Positions 37,220-44,747 of a stretch of 64,000 bases of DNA are shown here, one piece after another (within the stretch, counting starts at the first letter, position 1; each line of letters begins with the position of its first letter). The stretch comes from Ignavibacteriota bacterium (GTDB lineage Bacteria > Bacteroidota > Ignavibacteria > UBA10030): the NCBI GenBank assembly GCA_963727825.1, contig CAVSHO010000009.1:128001-192000 (forward strand), in the 5' to 3' direction. Made by a program: the position numbers and the translations under genes. Below the pieces are notes generated by a model. That model did not search any database. It was not told the origin of the DNA and saw only the letters and a program-made list of their open reading frames with translations.

Positions 37220-38224
37220 ATGTATTCGCCCAATCTTGATAGATATAGTTCCATGAGATACAATCGGTGCGGTCATAGCGGAATCAAACTATCCGCAATT
37301 TCACTGGGGTTGTGGCATAACTTCGGAAGCGTTGACAGCTTCGCGAATGCAAGAGCAATGCTACACCGGGCTTTTGATTTGGGAATTACTCACTTTGATC
37401 TTGCGAATAATTATGGTCCGGCTCCCGGATCTGCCGAAGAGAATTTTGGGAAGATTTTGAAAAAGGATTTTTTAAAGTATCGCGATGAGTTGATAATTTC
37501 TTCTAAGGCCGGTTATCCCATGTGGCCGGGGCCATATGGGGACTGGGGTTCAAGAAAATATTTGATTGCGAGTTTAGATCAGAGTTTGAAAAGAATGGGA
37601 TTGGAGTATTTAGATATATTCTACCACCACCGCCCAGATCCGGAAACACCACTTGAAGAAACCATGCAGGCGCTTGATCAGATTGTCCGAAGTGGGAAGG
37701 CATTTTATATTGGAATTTCAAATTATCCTGCCGACCTGACATTACGAGCGTCAACAATATTAAAAGAGCTGGGAACGCCTTGTCTTATTCATCAAGCAAA
37801 ATACAATATGTTCAACCGTTGGATTGAAGAAGATCTTCTAACTGTTTTGAAGAAAGAAAGGATCGGATGTATCGCATTCTCTCCTTTAGCACAAGGCCTG
37901 CTCACTGATAGGTATTTGAATGGAATTCCATCGGATTCGCGCGCTGCAAAACCTCATGGCTTTTTAAAAGTGGAAGAAGTGACAGATGAGAAAAGAAATT
38001 TATCTCGGCAATTAAATAAACTTGCTCAACAGCGAAATCAAACCATGGCGCAAATGGCATTAGCATGGGTGCTACGTCACAAAGAAATGACATCAGTCTT
38101 GGTCGGTACCAGCCGCGTTGCTCAAATTGAAGATGCTGTAGGCGCGTTAGCGAATCCCCATTTTTCCTCTGAGGAATTGAATGCAATAGATTTGATTCTT
38201 GCAGGAAAGAAGGAAAAGATATGA
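37220..38224 (+). CDS. mgrA: Aldo/keto reductase (L-glyceraldehyde-3-phosphate reductase, YghZ/MgrA type)
   Basis: SLGLWHNFG, HFDLANNYGP and SSKAGY.MWPGPYGDWGSRKYL. Confidence 0.9.
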   Translation: MYSPNLDRYSSMRYNRCGHSGIKLSAISLGLWHNFGSVDSFANARAMLHRAFDLGITHFDLANNYGPAPGSAEENFGKILKKDFLKYRDELIISSKAGYPMWPGPYGDWGSRKYLIASLDQSLKRMGLEYLDIFYHHRPDPETPLEETMQALDQIVRSGKAFYIGISNYPADLTLRASTILKELGTPCLIHQAKYNMFNRWIEEDLLTVLKKERIGCIAFSPLAQGLLTDRYLNGIPSDSRAAKPHGFLKVEEVTDEKRNLSRQLNKLAQQRNQTMAQMALAWVLRHKEMTSVLVGTSRVAQIEDAVGALANPHFSSEELNAIDLILAGKKEKI

Positions 38225-38609
38225 CAAAAGAATTGGTCACTTGATAGTGATCTTACTTGGAGTGGCAATACTTTGCTCTCAATCCAGAAGTCAATCTGAT
38301 GCAAAGAGATTAGAACGGTTCAAACCACTTTCTTTTGAAAAGGCCGATGTTAAGGCGAGTTCAATTTCCCTCCATTAAAAGACAATCTTCGACTGTAAAT
38401 GGATTATGAATCTATTTGAAAAAGCTTTAATAATAGACAAAGGAAAGGACAGTTGAACCTCTAAATAAAAAACTCTACATTATAATAATATTAACAGGTG
38501 ATAATCTATAATAGCCTATACTAAACCTCACAAAATCATAACATAAAAGCTCTGATTTAGTTCTTTGACGAGTTAGTATAGAAGAAAAAAGTATTGATTT
38601 AGATTCGAT

Positions 38610-38661
38610 GCCCGGATGGCGAAATTGGCAGACCTGCCTGCCGGCAGGCAGGCGCGCTAGC
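38610..38661 (+). pseudogene. tRNA-Leu 5' fragment with 20-bp palindromic insert (copy 1)
   Basis: GCCCGGATGGCGAAATTGGCAGA[CCTGCCTGCCGGCAGGCAGG]CGCGCTAGC is identical to the first 32 nt of the tRNA apart from the insert. Confidence 0.9.
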
Positions 38662-38674
38662 AAGAAACGTAATT

Positions 38675-38926
38675 ATGAATTGGTTTGTCTATGCGATTCA
38701 AAGCATACAACGTAATTATATATATGTCGGATTAACTTCGGACTTAGAGAAAAGAATATCTCAACATAATAACGGTAAAGAACGAACAACGCGACCATAC
38801 AGACCATTTATATTAATACATCATGAAATGTTTGGGACTCGTTTAGAAGCAAGAAAAAGAGAAATCTATTTGAAATCTGGATGTGGAAAAGATTTTTTAA
38901 AAAATCTCTCTTCCTTAGCGAAGTGA
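38675..38926 (+). CDS. Small GIY-YIG nuclease (SLX1-like/UPF0213 size class), copy 1
   Basis: FVY..YVG motifs, conserved Arg in KRISQHN and Glu in REIYLKSG. Confidence 0.92.
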   Translation: MNWFVYAIQSIQRNYIYVGLTSDLEKRISQHNNGKERTTRPYRPFILIHHEMFGTRLEARKREIYLKSGCGKDFLKNLSSLAK

Positions 38927-38955
38927 AACCGATACCAATGTGGATATAGTAAATT

Positions 38956-39007
38956 GCCCGGATGGCGAAATTGGCAGACCTGCCTGCCGGCAGGCAGGCG
39001 CGCTAGC
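38956..39007 (+). pseudogene. tRNA-Leu 5' fragment with 20-bp palindromic insert (copy 2)
   Basis: Same sequence as copy 1. Confidence 0.9.
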
Positions 39008-39020
39008 AAGAAACGTAATT

Positions 39021-39272
39021 ATGAATTGGTTTGTCTATGCGATTCAAAGCATACAACGTAATTATATATATGTCGGATTAACTTCGGACTTAGAGAAGAG
39101 AATATCTCAACATAATAACGGTAAAGAACGAACAACGCGACCATACAGACCATTTATATTAATACATCATGAAATGTTTGGGACTCGTTTAGAAGCAAGA
39201 AAAAGAGAAATCTATTTGAAATCTGGATGTGGAAAAGATTTTTTAAAAAATCTCTCTTCCTTAGCGAAGTGA
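39021..39272 (+). CDS. Small GIY-YIG nuclease, copy 2 (identical protein)
   Basis: Same 83-aa sequence; the ORF-track extension to 38940 reads through the tRNA fragment and is spurious. Confidence 0.92.
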   Translation: MNWFVYAIQSIQRNYIYVGLTSDLEKRISQHNNGKERTTRPYRPFILIHHEMFGTRLEARKREIYLKSGCGKDFLKNLSSLAK

Positions 39273-39301
39273 AACCGATACCAATGTGGATATAGTAAAT
39301 T

Positions 39302-39385
39302 GCCCGGATGGCGAAATTGGCAGACGCGCTAGCTTCAGGAGCTAGTGATCGCAAGGTCATGGGGGTTCAAGTCCCCCTTCGGGCA
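39302..39385 (+). tRNA. tRNA-Leu (anticodon CAG), CCA not encoded
   Basis: Acceptor GCCCGGA/TTCGGGC, anticodon arm CTAGC-TTCAGGA-GCTAG, long variable arm, T-arm GGGGG-TTCAAGT-CCCCC. Confidence 0.97.
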
Positions 39386-39387
39386 CT

Positions 39388-39426
39388 AAAATGAAAAGCC
39401 ACCCTTTGTGGGTGGTTTTTCATTTT
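39388..39426 (+). terminator. Rho-independent terminator after tRNA
   Basis: AAAAGCCACCC-TTTGT-GGGTGGTTTTT. Confidence 0.85.
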
Positions 39427-39460
39427 TATACTTCATAAACGGATTTGTATTTCAAGTTGA

Positions 39461-39512
39461 TCCCGACACACGAAAGTGTGACGGGAGAAATCCCGCTGCT
39501 TTTCAGCGGGAT
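39461..39512. repeat. Pair of TCCCG..CGGGA hairpins
   Basis: TCCCGACACAC-GAAA-GTGTGACGGGA and ATCCCGCTG-CTTTT-CAGCGGGAT. Confidence 0.7.
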
Positions 39513-39624
39513 CCCATTTGGGGGCACAAAGACTCGCTTTGCAATATCTTTCTTTTTATCTTAATCTTAATTGAAAACTGTAAATAGCATCATCCATCAA
39601 CAATCACAACTCACCGCATAGAAA

Positions 39625-40587
39625 ATGGACGTTTACTTTTACGAAGCGTTTGAAGAAGAAGCCGATGCACTTAAATCTCTTCTCGGCAATCAATTATCCT
39701 ACGATTTAACTAATAAAACGATTCAGGAAGCCGGGCATATCACTCCGCCGGCACGTTTGATCAGTATCCGAACACAATCTATCGTTCCGGTAGATTGGGC
39801 AAACAGACTCGATGGCATTTTGAGCAGAAGCACAGGTTACGATCATCTAAAGAAATATTTAGAAAAAGTTCACACACAAATTCCATGCGGCTATCTGGAG
39901 GAATATGCCACACGCGCTGTTGCCGAACATGCCATTCTATTGATGATGGCTTTAATACGACGGCTACCACAGCAGATGATGCAATTCCAGCATTTCGATC
40001 GCGATTGCTTAACGGGCGGGGAATGTGCTGACAGGAATCTACTAGTTGTAGGCGTGGGTAGGATCGGAAGTGAAATTGTGAGGATCGGTTCAGCACTCGG
40101 TATGAATGTCCAAGGTGTCGACATAGTGCAGCGTCACAAAGAATTACGGTATGTCAACAAAGAAGAAGGAGTCGCTTGGGCTGATATTATCATCTGCGCG
40201 ATGAATTTGACAAATGAAAATCACGGCTACTTTTCCTACAATCTTTTGAAGAAAGCAAAGCGAGGTATTCTCTTCATCAACATTGCACGCGGTGAACACG
40301 CTCCACTTTCCGATCTATTGAAGTTAGTGCAGGAACACCATCTCTATGGACTTGGGCTTGATGTCTTTGAAGATGAACCGAATGTTGCCGTAGCTCTTCG
40401 AAGTGGACACACAAATACTTCTGCCGAAGTTCAAACATTAGCGGCGTTACTTCAGCATCCGAATGTTCTCTTTACACCGCACAATGCATTTAATACAATC
40501 GAAGCAGTCCGACGAAAATCTCAATTTAGTGTTGATGAGGTTATTTACTTTCTAAAGAATAAGAATTTTCGGACTCGTGTGCGATAG
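39625..40587 (+). CDS. D-isomer-specific 2-hydroxyacid dehydrogenase family protein
   Basis: RSTGYDH, AVAEHA, GVGRIG, INIARG, LDVFEDEP and TPHNAF. Confidence 0.9.
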   Translation: MDVYFYEAFEEEADALKSLLGNQLSYDLTNKTIQEAGHITPPARLISIRTQSIVPVDWANRLDGILSRSTGYDHLKKYLEKVHTQIPCGYLEEYATRAVAEHAILLMMALIRRLPQQMMQFQHFDRDCLTGGECADRNLLVVGVGRIGSEIVRIGSALGMNVQGVDIVQRHKELRYVNKEEGVAWADIIICAMNLTNENHGYFSYNLLKKAKRGILFINIARGEHAPLSDLLKLVQEHHLYGLGLDVFEDEPNVAVALRSGHTNTSAEVQTLAALLQHPNVLFTPHNAFNTIEAVRRKSQFSVDEVIYFLKNKNFRTRVR

Positions 40588-40731: not shown

Positions 40732-40841
40732 CTTTTATCTCATTTATTTAGTTTTTAAATACCATCACTACCAAATTTGGCTTTAGATTCAAACAATATG
40801 GTTTTCAGCTCACGCACTTTTTATCTATATTGATAGAAAAT

Positions 40842-42786
40842 ATGCTATCACTTGAACATATTACTATTCAATTTGGAGAACGTTCGCTGTTCCAGGATGT
40901 TACAGCGACTGTTGGTCCGCGAGACTGTATTGGGCTGGTTGGTTCGAACGGCAGCGGTAAGTCTACACTTCTGAAAGCTATTGTTGGTCTTCAGCAAACC
41001 GATGCTGGAACTATCAGCAAAGCGCAATATGTAACGGTCGGCTACTTGCCACAAGACGGTGTTACCGCTTTCGGTCGTACCTTATATCAGGAATCAGAGA
41101 CTGCTTTTGAGGATGTCCTCCAAGTCCAGCATGAACTGGATGATGCACACCAACAACTTGCGAATCTTGATCCTTCCAGCGACGACTTTGCTGATACGCT
41201 TGAAGTTTTGGGTGAACTCCAGCATAAATTAGAAGACCTCGATGCCTACCGGATGAAATCCAAGATCGAACGCATTCTTATGGGACTCGGATTTTCTACA
41301 AAGGATTTTGAACGCCTGACGGACGAGTTTAGCGGCGGCTGGCAGATGCGCATTGCCCTTGCGAAATTGCTTTTAAAGGAACCCAATGTCCTCCTCCTCG
41401 ATGAGCCGACAAATCATCTCGATATTGAAACACTTCAATGGTTGGAAGAATATCTTTGTCAGTATAACGGCGCTATCATTCTTGTCTCGCACGACCGTAC
41501 ATTTCTTGATAATCTTACGAACGAAAACATTTGCTCTCAGCCGCGGTAAATTCGAAAGTTATGCCGGCAATTATTCTTTCTATGAAACCGAGCGCGAAGT
41601 ACGCAAAGAACTCCTTTTAAGCCAACTCAAGAATCAACAGCAGCATATCAAACAAACACAAGTATTCATCGAACGATTTCGGTATAAAGCTACTAAAGCA
41701 CGTCAAGTACAAAGCCGGATTAAACAGTTGGAAAAAATTGGGGTAGTAGAAGTGGAAAGCGAAGAAGAGGAAATCCATTTTCATTTTCCACCACCGCAAC
41801 AAAGCGGTCGTGTAGTGATGGAATTAAATAATCTCGGTAAACACTATGGTGCTTTAGAGGTTTTCAATAATCTTGATTACAAAGTTGAACGCGGCGATCG
41901 TATTGCAATCGTTGGAGTCAATGGTGCTGGTAAATCTACATTATCAAGGATCCTTGCCGGTGCAGAATCCTACGACTCAGGCGAGCGCATCATCGGCTAC
42001 AATGTTGTAACATCTTACTTCGCACAGGATCAAGCGGACGAACTCGATCCCACAAAGGACGTTCTGCAAACAGCAGAGGAATCTGCTGGAACAGAAACTC
42101 GCACTCAGCTTCGCACACTTCTTGGTTCATTTCTTTTTCATGGTGACGATGTTTTTAAGAGCGTATCCGTTCTCTCTGGCGGTGAAAAAAGTCGGCTTGC
42201 GTTAGCAAAAATGTTACTACAGCCGGCAAACTTTCTTATAATGGATGAACCGACGAATCATCTTGACATGAAATCAAAACGTGTACTGCAGGAAGCGCTA
42301 TTAAAGTATGAAGGCACTTTCGCCATAGTCTCGCACGACCGTGCTTTTCTCGATCCCATCGTCAACAAAGTTTTAGAAGTGAAACCCGGTTCACTCCGAA
42401 CGTTCCTCGGTAATCTCTCCGATTATATTATAAAGAAAAAAGAGGAACGCGAACAGACAGAACAGCGCATAGAAAAGTCAGCCACACCTCTTTCTAACGA
42501 GGCGCAAGCGACATGGCAAGAACAACAAAAACGACGCAAGAGCATCGCTCGCGATATCCGTATTGTGAAGAAGAAAGTTGAAGAAGCCGAGATTAGAATC
42601 CATCAACTGGAAACACGGAAAAAAGAGATCGAAGCATTACTCGCGAATCCCGAGCACTATAAAAACGGTGAAGAGGCAAAATTGATCGCAGCAGAATATA
42701 AGGAGTTACAAATCCAAATCGAAAAGGCATATACTAATTGGTCTGATTTAACTCATCAACTTGAGCAAGTGGAGAACGCTATTTAA
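40842..42786 (+). CDS. ABC-F family ATPase (frameshift near 41520)
   Basis: Two ABC cassettes (GSNGSGKST/FSGGW/LDEPTNHLD and GVNGAGKST/LSGGE/DEPTNHLD) and a C-terminal coiled coil. Confidence 0.9.
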
Positions 42787-44353: not shown

Positions 44354-44747
44354 TGAGTGATCAATGGCAAAAGAAAGTATAGTTCGAGAAAAGGCATTTG
44401 CATTTGCAATCAGGATTGTAAAGCTGTATAAATTTCTATCAACAGAAAAAAATGAATTTGTTCTTTCGAAACAGATATTACGCAGTGGCACTTCTATCGG
44501 TGCAAATATTGAAGAGGCAGATGGTGCAATTTCTAAAAAAGAATTTTCAAATAAAATATCCATTGCCTATAAAGAGGCAAGAGAAACTTCATATTGGTTA
44601 CGTTTATTGGAAGCCACTGATTTCATTGAAAAACGCCTATTCGAATCATTGGTAACCGACTGCGAAGAATTGTGTAAACTTCTTTTCGCAATTATAAGAA
44701 CCACGAGAATCAAAAATTGATCACTAATCATTCATCACTGATCACTA
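44334..44747. repeat. Inverted heptamer arrays flanking the four-helix-bundle gene
   Basis: Left TAGTGAA CAATGAG CAGTGAT GAGTGAT CAATGGC; right ATCACTA ATCATTC ATCACTG ATCACTA. Confidence 0.8.
44364..44720 (+). CDS. Four-helix bundle protein (23S rRNA IVS / TIGR02436-like)
   Basis: KAFAFAIRIVKLY, LSKQILRSGTSIGANIEEA and KEARETSYWL. Confidence 0.92.
   Translation: MAKESIVREKAFAFAIRIVKLYKFLSTEKNEFVLSKQILRSGTSIGANIEEADGAISKKEFSNKISIAYKEARETSYWLRLLEATDFIEKRLFESLVTDCEELCKLLFAIIRTTRIKN

Follow-up and report, generated by a model that had tools for sequence, protein, structure and literature searches.

Two tandem units of a putative nuclease-plus-hairpin cassette ahead of a tRNA-Leu gene in an Ignavibacteriota bacterium

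Why would a bacterium carry two broken copies of a leucine tRNA gene, each coupled to the gene of a very small nuclease, directly ahead of its intact tRNA-Leu(CAG)? We address this question for a stretch of 64,000 nucleotides (nt) from an Ignavibacteriota bacterium (GenBank assembly GCA_963727825.1, contig CAVSHO010000009.1, positions 128,001 to 192,000 of the forward strand), which is called the window throughout. Here, two head-to-tail units of 346 base pairs (bp) each (window positions 38610-38955 and 38956-39301) precede the tRNA gene. Each unit encodes a GIY-YIG protein of 83 amino acids (aa) and contains a perfect 20-nt palindrome, CCTGCCTGCCGGCAGGCAGG, hereafter termed PAL. On balance, we favour the reading that the locus represents two tandem copies of a minimal selfish nuclease-plus-hairpin cassette that resides in tRNA-Leu genes, with one working tRNA kept.

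Each unit is made up, in order, of tRNA nt 1-23, PAL, tRNA nt 24-32, a 13-nt spacer, the 83-aa open reading frame (ORF) and a 29-nt tail. PAL, which is predicted to fold into a hairpin of 7-8 bp, lies at 38633-38652 and 38979-38998 and splits the partial tRNA after nt 23, that is at the D-loop/D-stem junction, while the partial tRNA itself stops at nt 32, where the anticodon stem's 5' strand ends. The nt 1-23 copy of unit 1 is identical to 39302-39324. The sole difference between the units is found at the third position of the Lys26 codon (38752 A versus 39098 G; AAA/AAG) and is synonymous. The intact tRNA-Leu(CAG) 3' of both units (39302-39386) is recognised by ARAGORN and by Rfam (tRNA, 53.3 bits), and an ARAGORN scan of the whole genome found it to be the only tRNA-Leu(CAG). 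A first-pass annotation of this DNA had reported two 346-bp units before an intact tRNA-Leu(CAG), one synonymous difference between them, and in each a 13-nt spacer, an 83-aa GIY-YIG gene and a 29-nt tail, all of which are borne out in the assembly. It had also described the start of each unit as the first 32 nt of the tRNA; the end point at the anticodon stem/loop junction stands, but the stretch is not contiguous, the 20-nt PAL after nt 23 having been missed. The parts then listed sum to 326 nt rather than 346.

The encoded protein matches PF01541 with 64.3 bits against a cut-off of 22.6 (E 1.2e-17), and Pfam and AlphaFold agree on a single domain (residues 2-68) followed by one short C-terminal helix. 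[quoted passage not shown] An AlphaFold model built on the 73-sequence alignment (predicted local distance difference test, 94.5) has the GIY-YIG alpha/beta fold, and its Foldseek matches are 1zg2, SLX1 (6seh, 7cq2), I-TevI and UvrC-N, with template modelling (TM) scores of 0.65-0.68 and root-mean-square deviations of 2.2-3.0 Å over 70-74 columns for SLX1/UPF0213. By sequence the closest solved relatives are the UPF0213 proteins 1zg2 and 1ywl. A search with the 73-sequence profile placed 1zg2 first (E 6.3e-12), followed by the SLX1 nuclease domain 7cq2 (E 3.5e-6) and then I-TevI, and the NCBIfam match, to a group I intron endonuclease, was below threshold (20.3 bits against a cut-off of 56). 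Compared with an 80%-identical copy in a genome of the same genus (G007), the non-synonymous and synonymous differences (pN and pS) are 0.11 and 0.75, with synonymous sites saturated, and the ratio is about 0.03; other close pairs have ratios of 0.03-0.10. Ratios as low as these indicate that the nuclease gene is maintained by selection.

The site can be compared, empty and occupied, among genomes of the same genus. The tRNA-Leu(CAG) gene is present in 15 of 15 such genomes, and in 14 of them no match to the window GIY-YIG protein lies within 1.5 kb of it; ten of these 14 cassette-free genomes keep the downstream 2-hydroxyacid dehydrogenase gene. In G005, G013, G004 and G008, the sequence immediately ahead of the intact tRNA (about 170 nt) can be aligned with the flank 5' of unit 1, and therefore the partial tRNA of unit 1 occupies the native position of the tRNA 5' end, behind the native upstream region. 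The working tRNA is displaced 692 nt downstream relative to the cassette-free relatives. At the level of sequence, these comparisons show the window cassette to be an insertion relative to sister species. G007, on the other hand, has single-copy cassettes at two tRNA-Leu(CAG) genes, with protein identities of 80% and 65%: the first carries PAL at the same tRNA position together with one extra hairpin, and the second carries a second hairpin nested in PAL, with an older, decayed tRNA 5' piece further upstream. Presence and absence are thus polymorphic at one site, with no copy in 14 of 15 genomes, one copy in G007 (at each of two genes) and two in the window. Synteny via the upstream aldo-keto reductase gene was also tried and abandoned, as the gene is found in 23 of 40 relatives and has no tRNA within 1.5 kb at any of the 23 loci. 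At one further locus (L045, in G012), a piece resembling tRNA nt 18-34 lies about 20-50 nt upstream of tRNA-Leu(CAG), next to a GGCAGG motif and without a GIY-YIG gene; a cassette since lost may have left it as a scar.

Homologues were collected with the single window protein as query against one genome per prokaryote species, which gave 362 relatives; the counts that follow cover the best 80 of these 362 loci (58-80% identity). The 80 loci are labelled as Ignavibacteriota, Bacteroidota, Balneolota, several Patescibacteria groups and a few Pseudomonadota bins. In 69 of them the nearest tRNA is less than 400 nt away on the same strand, and at all 69 it is a tRNA-Leu, of varied anticodon, placed downstream of the gene (42), upstream (26) or overlapping it (1); among the remaining 11, eight are without a tRNA-Leu and three have one at 443-660 nt. 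Where the tRNA is downstream or overlapping, a 5' tRNA piece starting at nt 1-5 is found upstream of the gene in 36 of 43 loci. Where it is upstream, the piece is a 3' one that reaches the tRNA end and lies downstream of the gene (18 of 26 loci), and the terminator is often part of the duplication. Mapping of the 5' fragments at 29 loci showed that the duplication begins at tRNA nt 1 in 27. At two loci (L087 and L095) the 30-40 nt preceding the intact tRNA are repeated in front of the fragment, as would be expected for a tandem unit with a further unit upstream. At another (L119) the plugged copy departs from the intact tRNA at several positions, which suggests that tRNA sequence can travel with the element. 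Mismatch rates of the tRNA piece before and after PAL (127/917 versus 25/400), compared in order to separate element-borne from resident DNA, were discarded as uninformative, since truncated fragments inflate the first figure. In a tree of the proteins (77-column alignment), the PAL-linked nuclease clade comprises 67 rows with a support of 98/97 and its phyla are intermixed; a Paceibacterota bin and a Flavobacterium bin form a starred pair. This intermixing is consistent with horizontal transfer, although it does not prove it.

What, then, does the palindrome contribute? With one change tolerated in each arm, PAL occurs in 68 of the 80 homologous loci, typically within about 100 nt of the gene, and 42 of 88 PAL copies are the exact 20-mer. 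On tRNA coordinates, 72 mapped copies fall mostly at stem-loop junctions of the cloverleaf: nt 14-17, on the D-loop's 5' side, account for 25, the nt 23/24 site for 23 and the T-stem/T-loop for 14, with the remaining 10 at other junctions. All 16 flanking bases are matched in 37 of these 72 copies, and hence those 37 are clean insertions with neither duplication nor loss of flanking sequence. PAL does not change, although the tRNA sequence, the point of insertion and the silent sites of the ORF do, and it is the most constrained part of the cassette. Its conservation to the letter across phyla, at a distance where silent sites are saturated, points to specific recognition of the hairpin by the protein, and PAL is probably the DNA partner of the nuclease. 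The Leu-CAA cassette of the same genome has a nuclease that is 46% identical and falls outside the PAL clade, and it carries other hairpins; this single case suggests that the hairpin follows the nuclease clade and not the tRNA type. A non-palindromic variant of PAL, CCTGCCTGTCGGCAGACAGG, with two changes that do not pair with each other, was seen at L080, L086, L100, L116 and L117 and in G025, G027 and G018, and may mark a sub-lineage or asymmetric recognition.

PAL is also found on its own. Genome-wide counts, made with up to two mismatches and with the reversed pattern as control, gave nine sites in this genome, five of them exact, and PAL in 23 of 41 related genomes (0-9 per genome); the reversed pattern gave none here and 1-2 in four genomes. 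The three solo sites for which ORF context was examined are all intergenic. Hairpins are nested within PAL in G007 and at L099. We also asked whether the number of PAL sites tracks the nuclease clade over the 41 relatives and saw no clear link; G039 has seven PAL sites and one weak nuclease match (38% identity, E 1.7e-12). On contig 11 of this genome (G000 C11:80599, 81663, 97290 and 100325), PAL occurs at the same place in a dispersed repeat (..cacg-PAL-ctcattcggtcag..) that has a second hairpin; small mobile hairpins seem here to sit one inside another. On one viral contig (L205:556-647), a 92-nt tRNA-Met called by ARAGORN spans an exact PAL, and this tRNA gene may carry PAL.

Such solo copies raise the alternative that PAL is the primary mobile element, inserting into single-stranded DNA loops, with the GIY-YIG gene as its carrier or helper and the tRNA fragments targeted as dispensable, structured DNA. 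That solo PAL copies outnumber those in cassettes, that PAL sits within another repeat family at four sites on contig 11, that it inserts cleanly at varied tRNA positions without target duplication, and that other hairpins nest in it would all agree with this alternative. A free-roaming hairpin, however, would not be expected to stay near the nuclease in 68 of the 80 closest homologues. Moreover, two hotspots (nt 14-17 and nt 23/24) hold 48 of the 72 insertions, and no other candidate enzyme accompanies PAL. We therefore give the alternative a low probability.

This genome has 12 matches to the window protein and 45 tRNA genes, and for 10 of the 12 matches a same-strand tRNA gene is no more than 400 nt away (Leu-CAG twice, Leu-CAA, Ser-GCU twice, Ser-GGA, Gln-UUG, Pro-CGG, Pro-GGG and Asp-GUC). 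Nearly all ten have partial copies of the adjoining tRNA, with GC hairpins inside, on the far side of the gene; two of the ten cassette genes are broken. The remaining two matches are longer GIY-YIG paralogues without a nearby tRNA (G000 C7:171193-171393 and C9:23052-23270). In one relative (G002) an array of 14.1 units of 299 bp runs up to the contig end, each unit consisting of a hairpin-plugged tRNA-Pro-like 3' piece and a GIY-YIG gene; another (G019) has 7.2 units of 305 bp adjoining a tRNA-Val, and several pairs of protein matches 345-390 nt apart occur among the relatives. The two units of the window fit into a series with these 7- and 14-unit arrays.

The arrays also bear on the possibility that the locus is a passive relic, in which an old, inactive cassette acquired its units through slippage, unequal exchange or assembly error and the nuclease had no role. 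In this account the 23-nt direct repeats flanking the unit would suffice for unequal exchange, and the copies are one base apart. Among metagenome data, a contig from one run (X2) is exact over 38504-38671, covering the native flank, the fragment, PAL and the start of the spacer, while no contig among those of four metagenome runs bridges the unit 1-unit 2 junction, and the share of sampled words present in any run was at most 0.34. An unbridged junction and the occurrence of broken homologues would suit a relic. On the other side, neither ORF is interrupted and purifying selection on the clade is strong. Tandem arrays are found again, independently, at further tRNAs and in further genomes, and a false assembly loop would need a junction word joining tail, 23-nt repeat and PAL that would exist only if the units were tandem or circular. 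A passive relic is improbable, if somewhat easier to accept than a locus led by PAL itself.

Other arrangements of tRNA pieces and hairpins were also seen. Downstream of an intact tRNA-Leu(CAA), L131:1920-2500 holds PAL-plugged tRNA-Leu copies that recur at 192-nt spacing with no nuclease gene in between; PAL is present four times there, and three tRNA copies were matched. In this genome, G000 C7:93800-95150 (L003, L005) is an array of tRNA-Ser(UGA), a GIY-YIG gene, tRNA-Ser(GCU) and a second GIY-YIG gene, in which tRNA-Ser pieces are interrupted by a double hairpin, composite and about 55 nt long (GTCCG..GAGATC..CGGAC type); the start of a third GIY-YIG gene, truncated, is present as well. 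At G000 C10:74700-75600 (L006), a GIY-YIG gene and a GIY-YIG fragment lie among tRNA-Gln-like pseudo-copies in which a TCCCGC..GCGGGA hairpin takes the place of the anticodon arm and the T-loop contains a 24-nt hairpin.

A full-text literature search that included the PAL sequence as a term (few subscription journals, no supplements) found no description of such a cassette. In its presumed way of working it resembles a free-standing homing endonuclease gene of the SegB kind and the Ssn/NTS pair, and in layout the mobile endonuclease ORFs of fungal mitochondria, yet it departs from defining features of each. In fungal mitochondria, mobile ORFs (mORFs) such as that of Allomyces atp6 are GIY-YIG ORFs that insert together with a replacement for the end of the host gene and leave the original end as a fragment, and mobile double-hairpin elements occur in the same mitochondrial genomes. 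The displaced gene-end fragment beside an intact gene is similar to what we see; the mORFs differ in having protein-coding hosts, in-frame fusion and an organellar location, and are not known to have a conserved palindrome that plugs the displaced piece. SLX1 and UPF0213 provide the best profile and fold matches and have the core catalytic residues in common with the window protein. However, SLX1 contains a RING domain and acts on branched DNA together with SLX4, no function is known for the UPF0213 proteins (YhbQ-type), and neither has been reported with tRNA fragments or a cognate palindrome.

SegB of phages T4 and T6 is a free-standing GIY-YIG homing endonuclease encoded in a phage tRNA gene cluster (PMC2330249). 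Chihara et al. (2026, PMC13096335) report that SegB cleaves within tRNA genes and drives the segB-tRNA segment to amplify in tandem, a process that requires its catalytic residues and phage recombination genes; SegB homologues have no tRNA isotype preference. The resemblance lies in a GIY-YIG gene beside tRNA genes; SegB is horizontally mobile, as the cassette may be, and arrays of the window type fit the amplification described there. SegB is nonetheless larger, overlaps only weakly with the window protein in searches (in which no SegB structure or family name surfaced) and is phage-borne, whereas the cassette here is on a bacterial chromosome. SegB is not known to come with a plugged partial tRNA or a conserved palindrome, and the lack of isotype preference contrasts with a window clade confined to tRNA-Leu. 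Homing endonucleases of the SegB type also have a joined sequence-specific DNA-binding domain, which the window protein does not.

Another parallel is offered by the Ssn nucleases (cd10448). SsnA, a GIY-YIG nuclease with a single domain, binds a hairpin in single-stranded DNA, and its authors liken the Ssn gene-plus-hairpin layout to an insertion sequence (Chenal et al. 2025, PMC11893778). We made the comparison on size, domain make-up, hairpin layout and the SRM motif. Ssn proteins are single-domain GIY-YIG proteins of about 80-100 aa, against 83 aa here, and like the cassette the Ssn/NTS system has a conserved hairpin repeat that accompanies the gene and also exists as solo copies. By contrast, the closest solved relatives of the window protein are UPF0213 and SLX1, PAL numbers 0-9 per genome as against hundreds, and the term tRNA has 0 occurrences in PMC11893778. 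PAL does not fit the published SRM motif, and the 400 nt on either side of the ten GIY-YIG loci here contain no SRM match; genome-wide there were eight matches versus seven in a block-shuffled control, which is no enrichment. The two longer paralogues in this genome are flanked by other hairpin repeats, including a ATTCCCGCGTACGCGGGAAT hairpin of dRS3 form, and may be of the Ssn type. REP/RAYT systems (IS200/IS605-like) likewise consist, as the same paper summarises them, of a protein gene flanked by a cognate hairpin with many solo copies elsewhere, the hairpins being recognised as single-stranded DNA and insertions occurring without target duplication (PMC11893778). Their enzyme is a tyrosine (HUH) transposase rather than a GIY-YIG hydrolase and has no tie to tRNA genes.

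The Ssn parallel invites the view that the window protein is a host-serving hairpin nuclease acting on PAL sites scattered over the genome and on those of incoming DNA, with a role in recombination, transformation or defence against phage, and that the tRNA gene provides nothing except expression. The Ssn-like size and single domain of the protein, the dispersal of solo PAL in this genome, its relatives and viral contigs, the strong purifying selection on the gene and the finding that SsnA modulates transformation through NTS hairpins (PMC11893778) would each agree with this view. A host function is harder to reconcile with the patchy distribution of the gene, given that the clade is found in 3 of 41 related genomes and the site is empty in 14 of 15 genomes of the same genus, and with a tree in which phyla are intermixed. 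Nor would it account for the broken tRNA copies that accompany the gene (36 of 43 plus 18 of 26 loci) or for the tandem arrays and decayed copies, and the SRM result lends it no help. Of the four rival explanations weighed here we consider it the foremost, yet still unlikely.

We return to the selfish cassette as the preferred reading. It would consist of an SLX1/UPF0213-like GIY-YIG gene and its cognate PAL, held between an intact tRNA and a PAL-plugged partial copy. By analogy with SsnA and NTS, the nuclease would bind or cut hairpin or cloverleaf DNA, either PAL or tRNA-gene DNA in single-stranded or extruded form, and not a long site in double-stranded DNA. Such a target is suggested by the lack of a binding domain, by a nearest characterised relative that is structure-specific, by the placement of PAL at stem-loop junctions and by the evident tolerance of an intact tRNA beside the gene. 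The partial tRNA is disrupted by PAL; the intact tRNA is unchanged. Homologous recombination between tRNA-derived repeats could then heal the breaks, copying the cassette into empty tRNA-Leu genes, and out-of-register pairing of the repeats could add or remove units. The two-unit state would have arisen very recently, when the 23-nt repeats underwent unequal exchange, perhaps with stimulation by the nuclease as in the SegB case; ordinary unequal recombination between these tRNA repeats can produce it too, with help from the nuclease being optional. The gene or genes, the fragment and the tRNA would be co-transcribed from the native tRNA promoter upstream of unit 1. Much of what the first-pass annotation had proposed accords with this outline: the relationship to SLX1 was confirmed in profile and fold, a small integrase-free cassette tied to a tRNA gene with one working tRNA kept downstream is supported, and transcription from the tRNA promoter is plausible in view of the native upstream region retained before unit 1. 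The comparisons it had suggested were likewise informative, in that relatives have 0-copy and 1-copy alleles at the same tRNA and 7- and 14-unit arrays of other cassettes, and the search for small GIY-YIG genes with tRNA fragments found 69 of 80 near a tRNA-Leu, with tRNA pieces in 54 of the 69.

A number of observations count against the selfish-cassette reading. There is no separate DNA-binding domain in the 83-aa protein (Pfam, AlphaFold model), and as the intact adjoining tRNA keeps any target borne by the tRNA, simple double-strand homing is disfavoured and classical homing, in which the target is destroyed on insertion, does not fit. The PAL-linked nuclease clade is present in 3 of 41 related genomes as against 23 of 41 for PAL. 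Seven of the nine PAL sites in this genome have neither a tRNA gene nor a match to seven GIY-YIG queries from its own (G000) cassettes within 1.5 kb, and the same is true of 21 of 22 PAL loci sampled in relatives. Solo sites together with the rarity of the clade indicate that the linkage runs from nuclease to PAL and not from PAL to nuclease, a one-way pattern from enzyme to hairpin that is also known from REP/RAYT and NTS/SsnA (PMC11893778). In 40 viral-contig stretches with an exact PAL, a GIY-YIG match lies within 600 nt in one and a tRNA-Leu in none, and viral contigs as vehicles of the whole cassette find no support in this sample. The absence of the SRM motif described above belongs here as well. 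In most loci the partial tRNA copy does not differ from the intact one, so that the tRNA part borne by the element cannot be distinguished from the resident part. Internal stops occur in 2 of 79 homologues, and in the 65%-identical copy of G007 (L055:1330-1400) a run of A is one base too long and puts the final third of the gene out of frame, which is either decay or a homopolymer error. Lastly, the two-copy state is seen in the assembly alone, the genome bin has an estimated contamination of 6.55%, the taxon labels are the submitters' own and the tree rows are bins.

A bolder interpretation, which we consider possible but doubtful, is that the GIY-YIG gene together with PAL constitutes a new type of mobile system, autonomous and guided by hairpins. 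The nuclease would read both PAL and the stem-loop junctions of tRNA genes in single-stranded form, and host recombination would heal the breaks and so paste PAL and the gene at new sites. The near-universal sequence of tRNA-Leu could act as built-in homology arms and allow crossing between phyla, and solo PAL in chromosomes and phages might be non-autonomous offspring, as REPs are to RAYT. Were this to hold, every member of a family of tiny nucleases would be paired with a hairpin of its own, and such nucleases could become single-strand DNA tools.

If the selfish-cassette reading is correct, these would be among the smallest self-sufficient mobile units of bacteria, at about 300 bp and with a single 83-aa enzyme and a single 20-nt hairpin, and an essential, universally conserved gene would have been colonised without being destroyed. 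It would explain many of the genes annotated as 'GIY-YIG family protein' beside tRNA genes as well as the hairpin-plugged broken tRNA copies that confuse tRNA annotation, and it would link the phage Seg endonucleases at tRNA clusters, the Ssn hairpin nucleases and the mitochondrial mobile ORFs. Recognition of the hairpin by the protein may itself serve as a single-strand DNA tool. Furthermore, states of 0, 1, 2, 7 and 14 copies within one bacterial family offer a natural series for the study of gene amplification driven by a nuclease. The features of the locus are collected in the table.

Table. Features of the tRNA-Leu(CAG) locus, in window coordinates
Feature	Position	Strand	Evidence or remark
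Native upstream (promoter) region of tRNA-Leu(CAG)	38440..38609	+	Aligns with flank in G005, G013, G004, G008
Unit 1, copy of tRNA-Leu(CAG) nt 1-23	38610..38632	+	Identity to 39302-39324
Unit 1, PAL	38633..38652	+	Hairpin fold; also in 68/80 homologous loci
Unit 1, copy of tRNA nt 24-32, up to anticodon stem/loop junction	38653..38661	+	
Unit 1, spacer, 13 nt	38662..38674	+	
Unit 1, GIY-YIG nuclease gene, 83 aa + stop	38675..38926	+	PF01541, AlphaFold, Foldseek, invariant residues
Unit 1, tail, 29 nt; sigma-70-like -10 TATAGT 6 nt before next tRNA nt 1	38927..38955	+	
Unit 2, tRNA nt 1-23	38956..38978	+	
Unit 2, PAL	38979..38998	+	
Unit 2, tRNA nt 24-32	38999..39007	+	
Unit 2, spacer, 13 nt	39008..39020	+	
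Unit 2, GIY-YIG gene, one synonymous difference at 39098	39021..39272	+	
Unit 2, tail, 29 nt	39273..39301	+	Inferred from unit 1 tail and unit comparison
Intact tRNA-Leu(CAG)	39302..39386	+	ARAGORN, Rfam
Terminator-like GC hairpin, then T run	39394..39420	+	
Decayed tRNA 3' piece (T-arm, acceptor-like ends) with two GC hairpins inside	39449..39527	+	Relic

The TATAGT hexamer in the tail is well placed, yet the promoter scan as a whole was at chance (5 found versus 4.2 expected). On the 3' side of the intact tRNA, the relic tRNA piece is split by GC hairpins at 39459-39487 and 39488-39512, the folding z-score for 39387-39530 is -7.8, and the native downstream flank common to relatives picks up at 39528. 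As the piece is both decayed and split by hairpins, the locus carries the scar of an older event on its 3' side. A group I or group II intron in the tRNA gene was also considered and rejected: an Rfam search of 37500-40500 at E up to 1 found no intron family, only the tRNA and one match to a long non-coding RNA below the gathering threshold, which we took as chance.

The wider surroundings bear on one more explanation, namely that the locus is the remnant of a tyrosine-integrase island or of a phage attachment site at a tRNA gene. Tyrosine-integrase islands at tRNA genes usually have the integrase inside and a direct repeat of the tRNA 3' end. Transfer RNA genes are well known as integration sites and part of the tRNA is indeed repeated here, but the repeated part is the tRNA 5' end, split by PAL, and the insert is only 346 bp per unit. 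No integrase or transposase family was matched among the 21 ORFs of at least 110 aa between 25.9 and 52.9 kb (about 27 kb), of which one was scanned as its 83-aa GIY-YIG core only and four matched no family; this agrees with the first-pass annotation, which had noted no integrase or transposase nearby. The same layout with a nuclease gene also recurs in 54 of the 69 tRNA-linked loci, and we regard an integrase or phage remnant as very improbable. The neighbours are housekeeping genes, for galactokinase, galactose-1-phosphate uridylyltransferase, aldo-keto reductase, 2-hydroxyacid dehydrogenase, an ABC-F protein and xanthine dehydrogenase subunits. The ABC-F type ATPase gene (window 40830-42786) is read as two overlapping ORFs (40830-41549 and 41386-42786), through a frameshift or a sequencing error, and a gene for a PF05635 '23S rRNA-intervening sequence protein' (44364-44717) lies between two genes for subunits of the xanthine dehydrogenase type.

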